Shown: positions 54,562 through 64,000 of the stretch, one piece after another
Layout: each line of letters begins with the position of its first letter
How positions within the stretch are numbered: the stretch's first letter is position 1
NCBI GenBank assembly: GCA_963841435.1
Contig: CAWJCS010000003.1
Location: 288,001 to 352,000, forward strand
Direction of reading: 5' to 3'
Length of the DNA: 64,000 nt
Origin: an uncultured delta proteobacterium
GTDB lineage: Bacteria > Myxococcota_A > Polyangia > Polyangiales > Polyangiaceae
The notes under the pieces: generated by a model
What the model was told of the DNA's origin: nothing
The model's database searches: none
Seen by the model: the letters and a program-made list of their open reading frames with translations, nothing else
Translations under genes and position numbers: made by a program

Positions 54562-54756
54562 CCGAGGTCGCGATCTCTAGTGATCACGCGCCTGCGCCGC
54601 AACCCTCGGGGGGCTCGAGGCAGGAGGACGGCGAGGTAGGCGCTCTCCTCACATCTCGCTCCGACGCTGAAACGCGTGACGTGCGGGCATCATGCGGTGA
54701 CGGACATGCGACTGAAAGCTTCTCGTAACGTGGTAGCGAGTACGTTTTTAAAGAGC

Positions 54757-55518
54757 ATGTCGGAGCCGGCGACTCGCTCGGGATCACACCAGGGCACTTC
54801 GGTTGAGGCGTTCCGGAACGCCATGCCGAAGTCGTACGCCGAGCTCTATTCGACCGAGGAAAGCGGCGAGCACGCGGCGATCGTCGCGCGCCGCGGACGT
54901 TGGCTCACGAACGTCGAGGTGTGGCGGTCGCTCCCGGGCGAGGGGGCCATTCTGTGCGTCGTCGCCGAGGATCATCCCGGCTTTCTGTCGCTCGTGAGCA
55001 CCGCGCTCTACCTGCACGAGATCGACGTGACGACGGCACAGATCTACAGCCGCCGCAGCGACGCGGGCGAGCTCGAAGCCGTCGATTTTTTCTGGGTGCG
55101 TCAAAACGGCGCGGGCATGGCGCTCGACGCCGAGCGCGTGGCAAGCCTGCGCCGCGTCCTCGACGAGCTGGTGCTCCGGCAAGCCTGTCCCGATCCGATG
55201 CGAGATGCGCGGCCCGACGCGAGCGCGACGGAACCGCTGCCGCCCCCGCGCGCCTTCTTCGAGACCCAGCCGCTGCGTCAGGGTCGCTACGTGCTCGTGA
55301 TCGAGGCGTTCGACTTCCCCGGCCTGCTCATGACGGTGGCGCGCGCGCTGCACCGCGAGGAGCTCGACATCGTCGCGTCGTCGATCCAGACGAACGGCGC
55401 CAGGGTCCACGATCGCTTCACGGTGCGCGACACGCGCGGCGCGCCGCTCGGACCCGTGCGCCTCGCCGCGGTCCGCGCCGCCGTGGCGTCGGCGTTGCGG
55501 GCCGGGTCGGGCAGCTGA
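54757..55518 (+). CDS. Stand-alone tandem ACT-domain protein (GlnD C-terminus-like)
   Basis: DHPGFLS..DVTTAQIYS..AVDFF and DFPGLL..DIVASSIQTNG..VHDRFTV. Confidence 0.7.
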   Translation: MSEPATRSGSHQGTSVEAFRNAMPKSYAELYSTEESGEHAAIVARRGRWLTNVEVWRSLPGEGAILCVVAEDHPGFLSLVSTALYLHEIDVTTAQIYSRRSDAGELEAVDFFWVRQNGAGMALDAERVASLRRVLDELVLRQACPDPMRDARPDASATEPLPPPRAFFETQPLRQGRYVLVIEAFDFPGLLMTVARALHREELDIVASSIQTNGARVHDRFTVRDTRGAPLGPVRLAAVRAAVASALRAGSGS

Positions 55519-56501: not shown

Positions 56502-57110
56502 TCAGCGCCGTCCTGCGCCGCGCATCAGCACGCGCACGATCGGGTCCACCAGGTCTTCGAGTGACTCACGCCGCGACACCCCCTGCATCACGCTGCCGCG
56601 GACGAGCCCGAGGATCATGCCGGGCAGGTGCCGCGCGTCGCCCGAGCGCAGGACCCCCGATTCGACTCCCTCTTCGACCAGGCCGCCGAGCCGTGCGACG
56701 AGCTTTTGCGCCCAGGAACGACGCGGGCCGCAGCGCATCGCGTGCAGCTCGTCCTCGAGTGCGAGCGTGAACAGCGAGCGGTGCGCCTCGAAGTGGCGCA
56801 GCAGCACCCGCAGAAGGGCCTCGAGGCGCTTTTCGAAGCTCGAGTTCGACGTGCCCTCGATGGCCTCGTCGATACGATCGGCGAGCTCGTCGCGCATCGA
56901 TTCCAGCAATGCTGTCACGAGCTCTCGACGATCCGCGAAGTAGTTGTAGACCGTGCCGACGGCGATGCCGGCCGCTTCTGCGATATCCTCCATCCGGGCG
57001 GCCTGGGCACCGTGGCGGGCCAAAACACCCTCCGCTGCAGCAAGAATTGCACGCCGGGTTTCCTTGCGAACCCGGGTTCTGAGTCGATTTTCAGTTCTGT
57101 GAGGCTGCAT
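56502..57110 (-). CDS. TetR/AcrR family regulator
   Basis: AILAAA..ARMEDIAEAAGIAVGTVYNYFADR HTH. Confidence 0.92.
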   Translation of the reverse strand: MQPHRTENRLRTRVRKETRRAILAAAEGVLARHGAQAARMEDIAEAAGIAVGTVYNYFADRRELVTALLESMRDELADRIDEAIEGTSNSSFEKRLEALLRVLLRHFEAHRSLFTLALEDELHAMRCGPRRSWAQKLVARLGGLVEEGVESGVLRSGDARHLPGMILGLVRGSVMQGVSRRESLEDLVDPIVRVLMRGAGRR

Positions 57111-57185
57111 TCACCGGGTGCAAGGTGGAGTCAAAAGATGGGGCGCTTCACCCCCGCCGGCAAGGCCTTCACCCCCCGTGCAAGG
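57110..57185. promoter_or_regulatory. Three imperfect direct repeats TTCACC-Nx-GCAAGG between tetR and ino1
   Basis: Copies at 57110-57125, 57147-57165 and 57168-57185. Confidence 0.35.
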
Positions 57186-57267
57186 GCTGACTCGTTGACG
57201 ACATGCAGACGAGACCTTGACGACGGGGCAACAGGCCATAAGGACTGGGAAGTTCTTAGGCGGCACC

Positions 57268-58578
<1,311 letters not shown>

Positions 58579-58591
58579 GCAGAGGTACGGC

Positions 58592-60001
58592 ATGGAAGCT
58601 GTAGGGTCTATTCTAGGTGGCGACTTGACGGCCTCGGAGCGCGTCTGGAGCGCGCTGGCGCCCGCCGTCGTGCTCGTGGCGGTGCTGCTCGCGGCGTTGG
58701 TGGCCTACTTCGTGCGCTCGCTGCTGTTCGGCCGCTTCCAGGACGAAGAGATGGAGGGGCGAGGGCTCGGAGGTCTCACGACGGCGCGGGCACGGCACTT
58801 CTTTGCCTGGCTAATGCGCCCGCTCTGGCGCGCCCTCGCTGCCGCGCGGGTTCCGCCCAACGCCATCACGACGCTCTCGGTCGCTCTGTCGATCGCTGCT
58901 GGCCTCGCGGCAGGCATCGGTCGCTTTTCGCTCGCGGGCTGGGTCTTTCTCGCGGCCGGCGCCCTCGATTTCCTCGACGGTCGCGTCGCCCGCGTGACGG
59001 GGCGCGCGTCGCAAAGCGGCGCCGCCCTCGATTCGGTGCTCGACCGCTACTGCGAGTCCGCGCTGCTCGTGGGGCTCGCCTGGTACTACCGCGACTCCTG
59101 GGCGCTCATCGCGGTGCTCCTCGCCCTCACCGGCTCGCTGTTCGTGCCCTACGTGCGCGCGCGCGGCGAGGCGCTCGGCGCCAAGCTGAGCGACGTGGGG
59201 TTCATGCAGCGTCCCGAGCGCATCATCGTGCTCGGCCTCACCGTCGCACTCGCGCCCGTGCTCGAAGCCCTGCTCGTCCCGGACAATCCGCACCCGCCGC
59301 ACCGGCTTGCGATCGCTGGCCTCGTGCTGCTGGCGATCACGTCGCACAGCACGGCGCTCCAGCGCCTCGTGCACCTCGTCCGCTCGCTCGGCGCCGCGCC
59401 GCCCGTTCGTTACCGGCTCATGCCGCGCGCCATCGTCGTGAGCGTCACGGCGACGCTCACGGACTTCTTGGTGATGCGGGCTCTCGTTGCCGGCACACCC
59501 GTCTCGCTGCCGTTCGCGACCTTCTGCGGGTGCCTCGTGGGCGGCGTCATCGCGTTCTTTCTCTCCCGGCTTTGGGTCTTCCAGGCCGAGCAGTCCGAGC
59601 TCAGGACGCAAATCGGCCGCTTCACGTTCGTCTCGGGGTCGAGCGCTCTCTTGAACGCGGGCGGCGTGGCGCTCCTCTTGCTCGGCCCCACGCTCGGCCC
59701 CACGCTCGCCTGGGTGGTCACGCGCGTTCTGGTGTTCGTCTGCTGGAACTTCCCGCTGCTCAGCGAGTGGGCGTTCGCCGACAATCCGCGCACCGAGGGC
59801 CCGCACGACGGGCCGAGCCCCGAGCTCCATCCGGACGATTCTCGGAGGCAAGAGTGCCCCCGGAACTCCCTGAGCTGGCCCTGCCAGACCACGACTCCCC
59901 TCGCGATCCTGCCGCGCTCCCCGTCGACCCCGTCGCGCGGCTCCGGGTCCTGTGGGGTTGGACCTTCTTTTTGCCGCTCCTGCCGACGGGCTATCTGCTG
60001 A
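58592..60001 (+). CDS. CDP-alcohol phosphatidyltransferase fused to a GtrA-like domain
   Basis: PNAIT; DFLDGRVAR..GAALDSVLDR signature; YVRARGE, QRPER; C-terminal 4-TM GtrA-like (RLWVF, WNFPL..WAF). The 3' end overlaps the next gene and is uncertain. Confidence 0.85.
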   Translation: MEAVGSILGGDLTASERVWSALAPAVVLVAVLLAALVAYFVRSLLFGRFQDEEMEGRGLGGLTTARARHFFAWLMRPLWRALAAARVPPNAITTLSVALSIAAGLAAGIGRFSLAGWVFLAAGALDFLDGRVARVTGRASQSGAALDSVLDRYCESALLVGLAWYYRDSWALIAVLLALTGSLFVPYVRARGEALGAKLSDVGFMQRPERIIVLGLTVALAPVLEALLVPDNPHPPHRLAIAGLVLLAITSHSTALQRLVHLVRSLGAAPPVRYRLMPRAIVVSVTATLTDFLVMRALVAGTPVSLPFATFCGCLVGGVIAFFLSRLWVFQAEQSELRTQIGRFTFVSGSSALLNAGGVALLLLGPTLGPTLAWVVTRVLVFVCWNFPLLSEWAFADNPRTEGPHDGPSPELHPDDSRRQECPRNSLSWPCQTTTPLAILPRSPSTPSRGSGSCGVGPSFCRSCRRAIC

Positions 60002-60849
60002 TCCTGTTCCTCGCGCATGGGGACCTGCGCGCAGAGCACGTGGGGCTGGCCCTTTATGGGATCGTGTTCGGCTTGTGGGGGCGTCGCACCGTGGCGCTCT
60101 ACCGCGACATCTTGCCGTTCATGCTCGTGGGGCTCGGCTACGACGTGGTCCGCTATGCGCGCGCCTTGTGGGTGGGTCCCGAACGCGTGCTCGGCTGCGA
60201 GATGCTGCACGCGGAGACGGCGCTGTTCTCGGTCGGCGGTACGACGCTGCCCGCCTGGTTCGGACGCCATCACTTCGCGGCCGCCGATCTCGTGGCCTCG
60301 GTGCCCTACGCAGCCTTCATCTACATCGCGCTCGGCTATTCGGTGTGGCTCTGGTTCAAGGACAAGCCGCGCATGCGTCGGTTTCTCTGGGCCTTCGCCA
60401 TTGCGAACGTCATCTCGTTCACGACTTGGATCGCCCTGCCTGCGGCGCCGCCCTGGTACGTTGCGTCCCACGGCTGCACCATCGACATGAGCGCCGCCCC
60501 GAGCGCCGCGGGGCTCGTGCGCGTCGATCAGCTGCTCGGAATCGACTATTTCGGACGCTTTTATTCGCGCGCGGCGAGCGTTTATGGCGCGCTACCGTCC
60601 ATGCACTGTGCTTATCCCGTGCTCGGTCTGCTCACGGCCTGGCCGGGCGCGCGGCTGCGTACGCGGGCGATCCACGGGCTTTATGCGGTCTGGATGGCGA
60701 GCGCCGCCGTCTACCTGCAGCACCACTGGGTGATTGACGTCCTGGCCGGCTGGGCCACGGCGGCCGCGGGCGTGTATCTCGCCCGTCGTATCGTCAGCGA
60801 CGCACCCACGGTCGCGCGCGCCGAGCTCGCGACGGGAGCGCAGGCATGA
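59854..60849 (+). CDS. Aur1/inositol-phosphorylceramide-synthase-like PAP2 membrane protein
   Basis: GGAGG RBS before GTG 59854; PAAPPWY, ALPSMH, YLQHHWVIDVLAG. Confidence 0.85.
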   Translation: MPPELPELALPDHDSPRDPAALPVDPVARLRVLWGWTFFLPLLPTGYLLILFLAHGDLRAEHVGLALYGIVFGLWGRRTVALYRDILPFMLVGLGYDVVRYARALWVGPERVLGCEMLHAETALFSVGGTTLPAWFGRHHFAAADLVASVPYAAFIYIALGYSVWLWFKDKPRMRRFLWAFAIANVISFTTWIALPAAPPWYVASHGCTIDMSAAPSAAGLVRVDQLLGIDYFGRFYSRAASVYGALPSMHCAYPVLGLLTAWPGARLRTRAIHGLYAVWMASAAVYLQHHWVIDVLAGWATAAAGVYLARRIVSDAPTVARAELATGAQA

Positions 60850-63332
60850 CGAGCGCTACCTTCGTCCGCTTCCTGTTGCGTCACTCGCGCGCGATCACCG
60901 TTTGCCTCGTGCTGCTCGCGGTGGTGTCGGGCGTTCGCACGGTGCGCACCTATGCGAACCTGCGGAGCGACCTCGAGGAGCTCCTGCCGGCAAACGCGCC
61001 CGCCGTGGCGGCGCTCGCCGAGGCCAGGGCGCGCTTGCCGGGCCTGCGTCATCTGGGCGTCGTCGTCGACACGGGCGGCCCCGAGCACGCGAAGGCGGCG
61101 CTCACATTCCTGAGCGATCTCGAGCGGCGCGTCCTGCGCTACCCGGGCAACCTCGTGAGCGGCGTCCGCAGCGGCATCGCCGAGGAGCGTCGCTTCGTCG
61201 AAACGCACGGGCTACAGCTCATGCGCCCGGCCGACGTGAAGGAGCTCCGGGAGGCGGTCGAGGCGCGGCACCGCTGGGAGGTCGCCCACGCCACGGGGCT
61301 CAGCCTGTTCTCGGACGAGGAGGAACCGCCGCCTCCGATCCCCGTTGACGCGCTCGAAAAGAAGTACGTCGCGCGTTTCGGGCGACCGCACCCCTTCCCC
61401 GACGATCGCTTCCTCTCGGACGACGGCAAGACCGCCGTGCTCGTGATTCGTGTCGGCTCCCAGGCGACGGGCATCGCTGAGGACGAACGGCTGCTCGAGC
61501 TCGTCCGAACCGACGTGCAAGAGCTCGGCTTCCCCGCGGCGTACGCGGCCGGAATGCGCGTCGGCTACGCGGGCGACGTTGCGACGCGCGTCGAGGAGGC
61601 GCGCGGGCTCGCCGCGGATCTCGGCACCTCGGGCGCCGTCGTGCTCGCGCTGGTGCTCGCGGCCATCGCCTGGTTCTATCGTTCGTTCGCCGCCGTCCCC
61701 GTGCTCGCGCTGCCCGTGGTGTTCGGTGCCCTCTACACGTTCGGACTGGTCGCGCTGCCGCCCCTCGGCATCGTGGAGCTGAACTCGAACACGGCGTTCC
61801 TCTCGTCGATCATCGTCGGCAACGGCGTCAACAGCGGCATCATCCTCTTGGCGCGCTTTCGCGAGCAGACGCGGCTGGGGGACGCGCTCGAGCCCGCGCT
61901 CGTCACCGCCGTGCGCGAAACGTACCGGCCGACCCTCGGCGCGGCCGTCGCGGCGTCCGCCGCGTACGGGTCGCTGCTGCTCACCGATTTCCGGGGGTTC
62001 GCGCAGTTCGGGTGGATCGGGGCGCTCGGCATGCTCGTCTGCTGGGCGACGACGTTCGTTTTCGTGCCGCCGCTCGTTCGGACTTTCGGCAGGTTCCTGC
62101 GCACGAAGGCGTCCCACGGGACTGCCGGGATTTCGCCGCGGCTCACGGCGGTGGTCCTCGGGCGGCCCCGCTGGGTGCTCGGCGTCGGCGTCGCGCTCGC
62201 CGCCATTTGCGTGCTGGGGCTCGCCCGGCGGCGCTCGGACTGGCTCGAGACCGATTTTTCACGCCTGCGGCGGGCGGATTCGTTCGAGCATGGCGAGCGT
62301 TACTGGGGAAAACGCATGGACTCGACCCTCCGCACCTACCTCACGCCCGCCGTCATGCTGACGGACTCCAAAAAGGACGCCGAGCGCGCCGCTGCGGCTC
62401 TGCGCGGACTCCAGCGGGACGGCCGCGCCGGTGGCCTCATCGCAAGCATCCGGACGTCGGAGGCCGTCTTGCCTTCCACGCGTGCGGAGGCGCTCGAAGA
62501 GGCGAAGAAGCTCCGGCAGGAGCTCACACCGACGATGCTCGCCGCACTCTCACCTCCGGACCGCGCGCGCGTCGAACGGCTGCTCTCCGACGAAGCGCTC
62601 ACGCCGCTCACCGACGCCGACGTGCCCGCGGCGCTCGCCGCCGGCCTGCGAGACAAGAAGGGGCACATCGACCGGAACGTGCTCGTCTTCCCGAAGCTCG
62701 GCGCGGGCACCTGGGACGCCGGACGCATGCAGGCGTTCACGCGTGGTCTTCGGCGCGTCGCCCACGACGAGGGCAACAACGCCGTGGTCGTGGGAGCGCT
62801 CCTGCTCTCGACCGACATCATCGATGCCATGCGACGCGACGGTCCAATCGCCACGGGGGCGGCCATGGCGTTCGTGCTGCTCGTCGCCGTGCTCGCGTTC
62901 CGCTCCTTCGGACTTTCGCTGGCGGCCATGGCGAGCCTGTTGTTCGGCGTGCTTTTGATGCTCGGCACCGCGGCGTGGTCGGGCCAGCGCTTGAATTTTT
63001 CGAACCTCATCGCGCTCCCCATCACGTTCGGCGTCGCCGCCGACTATTCGATCAACGTGCTGCGGCGCTATCAGGCGGGGGGCGACCTCGCGGCGGCGAT
63101 GGCGAGCACAGGCGGCGCCGTCGCGCTCTGCTCCGCGACGACCGTGATCGGATTCGGGTCGCTGCTCATCGCGCAGAACCGCGCGCTGTCGTCGTTCGGG
63201 GCGCTCGCCGTGACCGGGGAGCTTGCCTGTCTCGGCACGGCGGTCCTGGTTCTGCCCGCACTGCTCGCGTGGTCGGGCGACCGCCGGGCGCCGGCCGGCG
63301 CCACCCATGGCGCGGAGGAGCACGCGACATGA
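60846..63332 (+). CDS. MMPL/RND family transporter
   Basis: Two repeats of TM + periplasmic loop + 5 TM; DLEELLP, GNGVNSGI, FGVAADYS, TTVIGFGSL. Confidence 0.9.
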   Translation: MTSATFVRFLLRHSRAITVCLVLLAVVSGVRTVRTYANLRSDLEELLPANAPAVAALAEARARLPGLRHLGVVVDTGGPEHAKAALTFLSDLERRVLRYPGNLVSGVRSGIAEERRFVETHGLQLMRPADVKELREAVEARHRWEVAHATGLSLFSDEEEPPPPIPVDALEKKYVARFGRPHPFPDDRFLSDDGKTAVLVIRVGSQATGIAEDERLLELVRTDVQELGFPAAYAAGMRVGYAGDVATRVEEARGLAADLGTSGAVVLALVLAAIAWFYRSFAAVPVLALPVVFGALYTFGLVALPPLGIVELNSNTAFLSSIIVGNGVNSGIILLARFREQTRLGDALEPALVTAVRETYRPTLGAAVAASAAYGSLLLTDFRGFAQFGWIGALGMLVCWATTFVFVPPLVRTFGRFLRTKASHGTAGISPRLTAVVLGRPRWVLGVGVALAAICVLGLARRRSDWLETDFSRLRRADSFEHGERYWGKRMDSTLRTYLTPAVMLTDSKKDAERAAAALRGLQRDGRAGGLIASIRTSEAVLPSTRAEALEEAKKLRQELTPTMLAALSPPDRARVERLLSDEALTPLTDADVPAALAAGLRDKKGHIDRNVLVFPKLGAGTWDAGRMQAFTRGLRRVAHDEGNNAVVVGALLLSTDIIDAMRRDGPIATGAAMAFVLLVAVLAFRSFGLSLAAMASLLFGVLLMLGTAAWSGQRLNFSNLIALPITFGVAADYSINVLRRYQAGGDLAAAMASTGGAVALCSATTVIGFGSLLIAQNRALSSFGALAVTGELACLGTAVLVLPALLAWSGDRRAPAGATHGAEEHAT

Positions 63333-64000
63333 AGCGGCGCGCCGTGCGGGCCTGGCTCGCCGCCGCTCTCTTCGTGACCGTCGCCGTGCCCGCGGCAGCC
63401 GAGCCCCGGCGCGTGAGCCTCGTGCAAGCCGTGGGCAGAGCGCGGCAAAATCCCCTCGCGCGAGCGGCGCTCGAACGCACGCGAGCGGCGCAGGCGCAGG
63501 CAGACGAGGCGCGCGGCGCTCGCTGGCCGCGCCTCGTCGTCACCTCGTTCATCGCCCCGAGCCCCGACATCCGCTGCCAGAACGCCGACTGCACGCGCAC
63601 GGAGCCCAAGGATCCGCAGTTCGGCGTCGCGGGGCTGTTCGGCGGCGTGCGCGCCGAGCTCTATCAACCGCTCTTCACCTTCGGCAAGATCGACTCCACG
63701 ATCGACGCTGCTGCGAGCGCGGCGCGCATGCAGGAGGCGCTCGCCGAGGGCGTGGCGCGCGACCTGGGCGTCGACGCGGCCCGGGCCTATCTCGGCGTCA
63801 AGCTCGCGCGCGAGGTCGCCGCGATGCTCGAGGACGGCCGGCAGCGCCTCGTCAAGGGCAAGGCGACCCTCGAGGAGCGGCTCGAGCAGGGTGATCCCGA
63901 CGTGACCGTGCAGGATCGCCTGCGGCTCGAAACGTTCGACGCCGAAATCCGTGCGCGCGCGAGCGAGGCGCGCGAAAACGAGGGCATCGCCCTCTCGGCG
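63329..64000 (+). CDS. TolC family outer-membrane protein (3' partial)
   Basis: Own translation: MKRRAVRAWL.. signal, SLVQAV..ARQNP, ARWPRL, QPLFTFGKI, ARAY. ATGA-coupled to the MMPL gene. Confidence 0.85.
   Translation, partial: MKRRAVRAWLAAALFVTVAVPAAAEPRRVSLVQAVGRARQNPLARAALERTRAAQAQADEARGARWPRLVVTSFIAPSPDIRCQNADCTRTEPKDPQFGVAGLFGGVRAELYQPLFTFGKIDSTIDAAASAARMQEALAEGVARDLGVDAARAYLGVKLAREVAAMLEDGRQRLVKGKATLEERLEQGDPDVTVQDRLRLETFDAEIRARASEARENEGIALSA

Follow-up and report, generated by a model that had tools for sequence, protein, structure and literature searches.

A predicted inositol-phosphoceramide operon of an uncultured Polyangiaceae bacterium with a core MMPL transporter and an acquired tolC–mlaC pair: a putative shuttle route to the outer membrane

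In Bacteroides thetaiotaomicron, inositol sphingolipids depend on the BT_1522–1526 cluster, which codes for myo-inositol-phosphate synthase (MIPS), a phosphatidylinositol phosphate (PIP) synthase, a GtrA protein and an Aur1-like phosphatidylinositol (PI)–ceramide synthase, with the serine palmitoyltransferase (SPT) encoded elsewhere in the genome (Heaver et al. 2022, PMC9246714). By deletion, BT_1522 was found to make PI-dihydroceramide; the PgpA-family protein BT_1525 is the likely PIP phosphatase, and the motif DX2DGX2AR...GX3DX3D is quoted for the PIP synthase BT_1523 (PMC9246714). The words 'transport', 'MMPL' and 'RND' (resistance–nodulation–division) do not occur in the main text of that paper. 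Among envelope lipid-transport systems, the hopanoid-trafficking system HpnN–HpnM–HpnS (HpnN structure 5khn; shuttle route proposed in the preprint PMC12324291, in which 'TolC' occurs 0 times) combines an RND pump, an MlaC-family shuttle and an outer-membrane acceptor. An MlaC-family carrier is likewise part of the Mla system, MlaFEDB–MlaC–MlaA (PMC10665443), and the same source reports tolC next to mla genes in Negativicutes, in an operon with a long MlaD and tamB and without MlaC. In Caulobacter, the head-group genes of a phosphosphingolipid cluster are linked to candidate envelope transport genes, with export by LptC2/F2/G2 proposed and the sphingolipid route from the inner to the outer membrane stated as not known (PMC11324152). 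Here we describe a six-gene operon with elements of these systems, in the order ino1, PIP synthase–GtrA fusion, Aur1-like gene, MMPL, tolC and mlaC, which begins in, and extends beyond, a 64,000-nucleotide stretch of DNA (the window; G000:C3:288001-352000) from an uncultured Polyangiaceae bacterium (assembly G000; 7.8 Mb, 95% complete). The closest named relatives of its MMPL protein are from Polyangiaceae of the phylum Myxococcota. We read the operon as a putative inositol-phosphoceramide pathway joined to a shuttle-type MMPL–MlaC–TolC route to the outer membrane, a reading to which we give a probability of roughly 0.55.

The features of the locus, in window coordinates unless a contig is named, are:

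57110-56502, minus strand: tetR, divergent TetR-family regulator (PF00440, E 8e-13)
57268-58578, plus strand: ino1, myo-inositol-1-phosphate synthase, 436 aa (PF07994/PF01658)
58592-60001, plus strand: CDP-alcohol phosphotransferase–GtrA fusion, the predicted PIP synthase (PIPS) (PF01066 + PF04138)
59854-60849, plus strand: Aur1-like PAP2_3 protein, 331 aa, GTG start, predicted inositol-phosphoceramide synthase
60846-63332, plus strand: MMPL/HpnN-like RND transporter, 828 aa (PF03176 twice)
63329 to C3:352681, plus strand: tolC, TolC-like outer-membrane factor, 450 aa (PF02321 twice); the window holds its 5' half, 63329..64000
C3:352692-353297, plus strand: mlaC, 201 aa, last gene of the operon, outside the window (PF05494, E 6e-32)

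The genes named in a sequence-only reading of the window all lie where that reading had placed them and are tightly coupled, the successive junctions from ino1 to tolC being a 13-nt gap, a 148-nt overlap and two ATGA overlaps. The end of tolC lies 681 nt beyond the window edge, and mlaC follows after 10 nt, in keeping with the guess of an MlaC-like gene downstream; the gene after mlaC is unrelated to the operon. The 148-nt overlap between the fusion gene and the Aur1-like gene measures 20 nt in the related locus L192, where the fusion is 422 aa long. The last ~45 codons of the fusion gene may thus be due to read-through or an assembly indel, an error being conceivable because the assembly has frameshifts elsewhere: bamA (G000:C6:607550-610438) is broken across several frames, a sign of indel errors. 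Among sequencing runs, no RNA run was listed as containing the locus; in the one DNA run, made up of short pieces, none of the 8 listed pieces (of 43) crosses the PIPS/Aur1 junction.

The enzymes bear out the proposal that the locus is a myxobacterial counterpart of BT_1522–1526. First, the best PDB match of Ino1 is BT_1526 (7NWR; E 6e-156). Second, the fusion protein has the PIP synthase motif, DxxDGxxAR...GxxxDxxxD, at residues 126–151, retrieves PIP synthases as its best PDB matches (E 3e-20) and AIP/PIP synthases and PIPSynBT1523 as its best NCBIfam matches, all under cut-off; with its GtrA half (PF04138) equivalent to BT_1524, it corresponds to BT_1523 plus BT_1524. Third, the sole PDB matches of the Aur1-like protein are to yeast Aur1 (E 8e-15, aligned to 9vj3), and it matches NF052609, the BT_1522 family, with E 9e-41 and 140 bits, the cut-off of 480 not being reached. 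Its H251, H290/H291 and D295, a His-His-Asp triad that we take to be catalytic, are invariant together with a P-x-A-P-P-W motif in all 26 aligned homologs, and the KxxxxxxRP phosphatase (PAP2 C1) motif is absent, as expected if the PAP2 protein is Aur1-like rather than a phosphatase. A related-locus search with the Aur1-like protein alone returned no loci. The operon itself holds no phosphatase gene, as had been noted for the window; G000 has one PgpA gene, unlinked to the operon (C6:320513-320926), and relatives often carry pgpA within the cluster, as in BT_1522–1526 (12 of 20 loci, see below), so that the predicted PgpA answers the question of the missing PIP phosphatase. We consider synthesis of PI via PIP very likely, and transfer of phosphoinositol to ceramide by the Aur1-like enzyme likely. 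Compared with BT_1522–1526, the operon here has PIPS and GtrA fused, PgpA unlinked, MMPL as a core member, and tolC and mlaC appended; taken by itself, its biosynthetic half adds no more than one new member to the Bacteroides pathway.

We then surveyed the neighborhoods of related genes across the phylum. Of 201 Myxococcota genomes, 24 yielded the Aur1-like gene, and 20 Aur1 loci, covering four families, were fetched from 19 of the 23 genomes other than G000 (all but G147, G169, G194 and G214). Within 7.5 kb of the Aur1-like gene, these 20 loci have MMPL in 17, PIPS in 17, Ino1 in 13, GtrA in 12, PgpA in 12, and TolC, MlaC and TetR in one each. Since PIPS and MMPL each accompany the Aur1-like gene in 17 of these 20 loci, which span four families, the grouping of enzymes and transporter is not due to chance and, going by gene order, MMPL is a true core member of the inositol-lipid cluster, as the sequence-only reading had proposed. 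A survey anchored on MMPL, consisting of the best 80 of 511 GTDB loci, some of which repeat genomes fetched before, found an inositol-lipid gene nearby in 55 (Aur1 in 38, PIPS in 40, PgpA in 33). Three of the six TolC matches among these 80 loci (L198, L201 and L205) were dropped, being outer-membrane factors of an upstream adaptor–AcrB efflux operon; a candidate in-frame OEP–MMPL fusion seen there (L201/L173) is absent from L198 and L205 and probably reflects a lost stop codon. The Aur1–MMPL pair is also carried by a cultured species, Minicystis rosea DSM 24000 (L199).

The MMPL protein has HpnN as its best family, with scores far under the cut-offs (TIGR03480, 192 bits vs 752; NF052374, 110 vs 1100). 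Its structural model (pLDDT 86.8) has MmpL4 and HpnN as closest folds, with a TM-score of 0.68–0.69 to HpnN; the best value for HpnN/MmpL, 0.69, compares with 0.52 for the AcrB-type MexY. Transmembrane helix 10 keeps D733–Y734. The operon is not a member of the HpnN system, the scores lying under the HpnN and HpnM cut-offs and no squalene cyclase having been found: a squalene/oxidosqualene cyclase (PF13243) was not found in G000 at 95% completeness, so that MMPL is probably not a hopanoid pump, and a hopanoid or sterol cargo is unlikely. It likely handles the product of the inositol-lipid pathway.

Turning to the distal genes, the TolC model (pLDDT 94.1) shows a TolC fold (Foldseek TM-score 0.70 to TolC). 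Members of this TolC family turned up in 92 of 201 genomes (E<=1e-25), almost without exception as a single copy. Of the 33 TolC loci that came from outside the family to which G000 belongs (40 were fetched in all), 30 have mlaC next to tolC, distant TolC members adjoin MlaC in all 6 loci of family f18, and in metagenomes mlaC follows tolC in 48 of the 61 loci with enough DNA. The order bamA–skp–tolC–mlaC was seen in 8 of the 40 loci; these are in families f8 and f9 (L057, L061, L062, L069, L152, L154-L156), where the pair stands directly behind bamA–skp, among outer-membrane assembly genes. On this phyletic pattern, tolC–mlaC is a separate, older and mostly single-copy pair in many Myxococcota families. 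Tallies by family further show TolC and the MMPL subfamily often occurring together (15/15 and 15/15 in f1; 13/13 and 11/13 in f9; 11/11 and 11/11 in f28) and neither of them present in f24, f27, f31 and f32, families where LpxC is mostly found, a co-occurrence that is confounded by kinship to the query and serves only as a lead. Genome G163 (99% complete) has no match for TolC, MlaC or MMPL.

In G000, the pair is foreign and stands in for the native genes. First, the operon TolC shares 31–34% identity with the TolCs of ten genus mates, and 47% and 40% with those of genomes from other orders. Second, in a 40-row tree it joins the genomes of other orders at 100/100, with 17 family TolCs forming a clade at 99/97, and an approximately unbiased (AU) test (25-row subset, quick tree, LG+G4) rejected forcing the four cassette TolCs together with nine family TolCs (p 5e-7); the MlaC tree parallels that of TolC. 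Third, the native tolC site, after a sigma-54-type response regulator, is occupied in 9 of 10 genus-mate loci, one locus being cut short, and holds another gene in G000; the native mlaC site, after pilS, is occupied in 4 of 4 family loci and is empty in G000. The operon thus holds the only MlaC of G000 (one match), its only TolC of this family and its only MMPL of the subfamily, of which Minicystis has five. The same cassette is found with identical gene order in L192 and L280 and shuffled in L193 and L194; in the genomes of L192–L194 it provides the only tolC and mlaC, and in two of them also the only MMPL of the subfamily. As the trees and vacated sites indicate, tolC–mlaC came in together from another order while two unlinked native genes went, and such a replacement of two unlinked native genes by one linked foreign pair adds to the evolutionary case for TolC and MlaC working together.

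We suggest the following route. Ino1 would make inositol-phosphate, from which the PIP synthase would make phosphatidylinositol phosphate, and the unlinked PgpA would take off a phosphate to give PI. The Aur1-like enzyme would then move phosphoinositol from PI to ceramide supplied by an SPT/CerS/CerR-like gene cluster, MMPL would draw the product out of the inner membrane, MlaC would carry it across the periplasm, and an adaptor-less TolC-like trimer would receive it, in the position that MlaA or HpnS holds in other systems. Outward carriage of the lipid by MlaC and TolC strikes us as somewhat better than an even bet. Read most simply, the gene neighborhoods make MlaC and the TolC-like protein partners, the latter standing at the outer membrane where MlaA/HpnS would be, with the carrier able to receive lipid from an RND pump or from an ABC pump. 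Relative to HpnN–HpnM–HpnS, the route would have a TolC-fold outer-membrane partner instead of the MlaA-like HpnS, and it has inositol-lipid genes as neighbors; relative to the Mla system, no MlaA was found and the inner-membrane neighbor is an RND protein; relative to the Caulobacter cluster, RND, MlaC and TolC stand in place of Lpt paralogs and the head group would be inositol; relative to the AcrAB–TolC tripartite pump, a TolC-fold factor is present and no adaptor gene is in the operon. A complex prediction for a TolC monomer (residues 26–446, 73 rows) with MlaC (28–201) scored 0.31 against a mark of 0.32, with controls not folded.

Two claims of the sequence-only reading find no support in the form in which they were made. 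Export had been called 'dedicated', whereas tolC–mlaC is spread over the phylum and is a sole copy in G000, and because all three transport genes are sole copies there, the route is probably shared with other envelope lipids rather than reserved for one lipid. Export had also been called an 'envelope-spanning' MMPL–TolC unit, whereas no adaptor gene is in the operon, the MMPL model resembles HpnN/MmpL, and MlaC points to a shuttle. Of the MMPL/TolC linkage, whose lack of conservation that reading had named as grounds for abandoning its proposal, the MMPL part is kept beside the Aur1-like gene (17/20) and the TolC part is not (1/20), so that this ground holds in part. A cluster copy that does look dedicated is present in three other genomes (G192, G124 and G072), because these keep a second, unlinked tolC–mlaC besides it.

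The acceptor lipid requires a source of ceramide, and candidates for its synthesis are present in the genome: G000 has a cluster of spt, an unassigned gene, a cerS-like and a cerR-like gene at C3:1062729-1068043. The SPT-like protein has SerpalmtaseCFB as its best NCBIfam match (E 1e-134, ahead of BioF and Kbl, under cut-off). The cerS candidate, the next but one gene after spt, matches proteins annotated YghO/'dATP pyrophosphohydrolase' over its full length and has no PDB relative, and the cerR candidate is an NAD-dependent reductase; the names cerS and cerR are presumptive, given from this context and from the annotation of that family. The gene between spt and the cerS candidate (G000:C3:1064445-1065809; L092:4446-5810) is a 454-aa open reading frame (ORF) with no Pfam or NCBIfam match, and it is not at that place in L148 and L151. 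Across the phylum, a cerS-like gene is present in 20 of 22 Aur1-positive genomes tested, 16 of these at E<1e-90, and close spt and cerS-like genes are present in the L192–L194 genomes. In family f18, a divergent SPT-like gene stands beside an acyl carrier protein (ACP) gene and a cerS-like gene in four loci, and two more genomes bring the number of additional genomes to six; the arrangement, with a cerR-like gene as well, is seen in L140:4738-8895, L142, L143 and L145. In G169:C29, G094:C16, G194:C61 and G192:C71, the alpha-oxoamine synthase (AOS) domain belongs instead to a ~2200-aa open frame that may be a polyketide-synthase fusion. Ceramide is thus a good acceptor for G000 and a less sure one for the whole cluster family, since a close SPT occurs in few Aur1-positive genomes.

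Several observations weigh against the proposed route as a whole. In the transport half, tolC and mlaC are mostly unlinked within the family of G000 (adjacent in 0 of 7 fetched loci), TolC and MlaC stand beside only 1 of 20 Aur1 loci, so that most clusters are without this linkage, and the two together stand beside 3 of the best 80 MMPL loci; further, as the five cassette MMPLs (G000, L192–L194 and L280) form one clade, the cassette represents one acquisition. In the transporter, helix 4 has Asn329 where 9 of 24 aligned homologs have Asp, which makes proton coupling uncertain. MlaC has another possible partner, because mlaE–mlaF–mlaD–tolC–mlaC operons exist (4 of 130 loci: L352, L353, L354 and L356, on distant metagenome contigs, Pfam-confirmed in L353) and G000 itself carries MlaD at five loci along with several MlaE-like genes, all outside the operon. 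In the biosynthetic half, none of the operon proteins reaches its NCBIfam equivalog cut-off, so that the enzyme activities are only inferred; a close SPT (E<=1e-100) is found in only 4 of 23 Aur1-positive genomes, and six genomes of this order have only unclassified SPT relatives of ~34% identity. Finally, lipid A genes have been lost throughout the genus irrespective of the cassette: LpxB was found in none of 13 genus genomes, against 12 of 15 other family genomes, on which ground we rejected the idea that the arrival of the cassette coincided with that loss.

Next to our reading, the account that survives best, though we hold it unlikely, takes tolC–mlaC as the outer half of a Mla-type system with MlaFED, TolC standing in for MlaA, that landed behind MMPL by transfer and receives no lipid from it, with MMPL only flipping or extracting lipid at the inner membrane. 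The mlaEFD–tolC–mlaC operons, the five MlaD loci and several MlaE genes of G000, the location of the pair after bamA–skp in 8 of 40 loci, the rarity of the MMPL linkage (1/20; 3/80) and the single origin of the cassette all fit this view, as does the failure to find MlaA: a profile of our own from 8 MlaA/VacJ proteins found nothing at E<=1 in the six-frame translation of G000, PF04333 itself not being run on the genome. Against it, no mlaE or mlaD lies near tolC–mlaC in 50 Myxococcota genome loci, and other lineages join the three genes in no fewer than three further arrangements, with cluster-borne paralogs beside a housekeeping pair. One is MMPL–mlaC–tolC, beside inositol-lipid genes in G192 and G124 and without them in G035 (loci L042, L162 and L181). 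Another, in G072 and G051, has tolC–mlaC facing tetR–ino1–MMPL–oxidoreductase–PIPS–gtrA–aminotransferase–pgpA (L179/L180, among the separate linkages), and a third is tolC–mlaC–MMPL in four metagenome loci (L285, L286, L289 and L315). Moreover, all six metagenome TolCs with at least 50% identity and at least 400 nt upstream have MMPL in the locus. Both accounts can hold together if the TolC–MlaC end is shared. The four mlaEFD–tolC–mlaC operons themselves have a short MlaD and no adjoining mlaA, on contigs of 42–58% GC.

Returning to the inositol-phosphoceramide reading, its lipid product has a rival that we judge improbable, namely that the Aur1-like enzyme transfers phosphoinositol (or an amino-inositol phosphate) not to ceramide but to another acceptor, for example diacylglycerol or an ether lipid, or that it is the PIP phosphatase, so that the product would be an inositol glycerolipid. 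The sparse distribution of close SPTs speaks for this, as do the many close MMPL loci with PIPS/PgpA and without an Aur1-like gene (present in 38 of 80), the varied head groups implied by an oxidoreductase plus aminotransferase in 22 of 80 loci, and the score of the Aur1-like protein far under the BT_1522 family cut-off (140 vs 480 bits). Yet its only solved relatives are yeast Aur1, the phosphatase role falls to PgpA, whose gene accompanies the Aur1-like one in 12 of 20 loci, close spt and cerS-like genes occur in G000 and in the three further cassette genomes, and a report of ceramide phosphoinositol in Myxococcus xanthus is cited in PMC9246714. That MMPL and TolC form a direct and dedicated exporter spanning the envelope, built like a tripartite efflux pump, we regard as very improbable: the MMPL/tolC stop/start overlap and the same MMPL–tolC order in L192–L194, L280–L282, L284 and L313 would suit it, but the operon has no membrane-fusion-protein gene, the MMPL model is nearer to HpnN/MmpL than to MexY, the conserved neighbor of TolC is MlaC and not MMPL, and a TolC that is the sole family copy in G000 is unlikely to be dedicated. 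TolC proteins normally act as exit ducts opened by an adaptor, and no adaptor ORF lies between or after MMPL, tolC and mlaC, adaptors elsewhere in the genome not having been searched.

LpxC and LpxB were not found in G000 (95% complete), and neither LpxB nor LpxC was seen in the L192–L194 genomes, whose completeness is not given. Set beside the route preferred here, this leads us to a tentative and wider proposal: Myxococcota, above all those without lipid A genes, might use an undescribed route in which an adaptor-less TolC-fold port serves an MlaC shuttle fed by MMPL or MlaFED, which in G000 would deliver a yeast-like inositol-phosphoceramide to the surface in place of lipopolysaccharide, with the exchange of the native tolC, mlaC and MMPL genes for one cassette marking MMPL, MlaC and TolC as one machine. 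Three transport proteins open to testing are singled out by the locus, linked to a defined lipid pathway of a diderm in which lipid A genes were not detected. The literature searched, with subscription papers and supplements, which may hold gene-neighborhood tables, outside the search, yielded no paper with MlaC, MMPL and TolC together and none describing the module; passages of PMC5561183 and PMC10191378 contain nothing on it. The novelty lies in the finding, across Myxococcota, of an Aur1-type cluster that has MMPL as a core gene, and in the evidence from the tolC–mlaC replacement.

A regulatory link of tetR to the operon finds no support in synteny: a TetR gene is near 1 of 20 Aur1 loci, and the same cassette lacks tetR upstream in L192–L194. 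The 157-nt gap between tetR and ino1 showed no clear TetR operator palindrome, no sigma-70 site was found, and Rfam gave no match within 20 kb. Elsewhere in the window, 54676-55518 on the plus strand codes for a stand-alone protein with two ACT-like domains that is not related to the operon and presumably resembles the regulatory tail of GlnD.

Several related genes and loci merit record. G000 has a second, distant Aur1/PAP2-like ORF (C6:647664-648803, minus strand; profile E 3e-11), and in G042 a pgpA gene is flanked by two Aur1-like genes in one cluster (L045:10742-13320). In families f24 and f31, an SPT-like gene (45–49% identity to the G000 SPT) is divergent from vacJ(mlaA)–hpnM(mlaC) in all 11 fetched loci (L112–L122; e.g., L114:4318-10370, L119 and L120), with hpnN beside it in 3 of 11 and no cerS-like match in two genomes tested; these may represent a second lipid pathway with its own shuttle. 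In a common cluster variant, the PIP synthase is flanked by genes for a class III aminotransferase and a Gfo/Idh/MocA oxidoreductase (22 of 80 MMPL loci, L192–L271; also L015:10575-13824, L041:11805-15080, L038, L017 and L179), which points to a membrane lipid whose head group is an amino-inositol.

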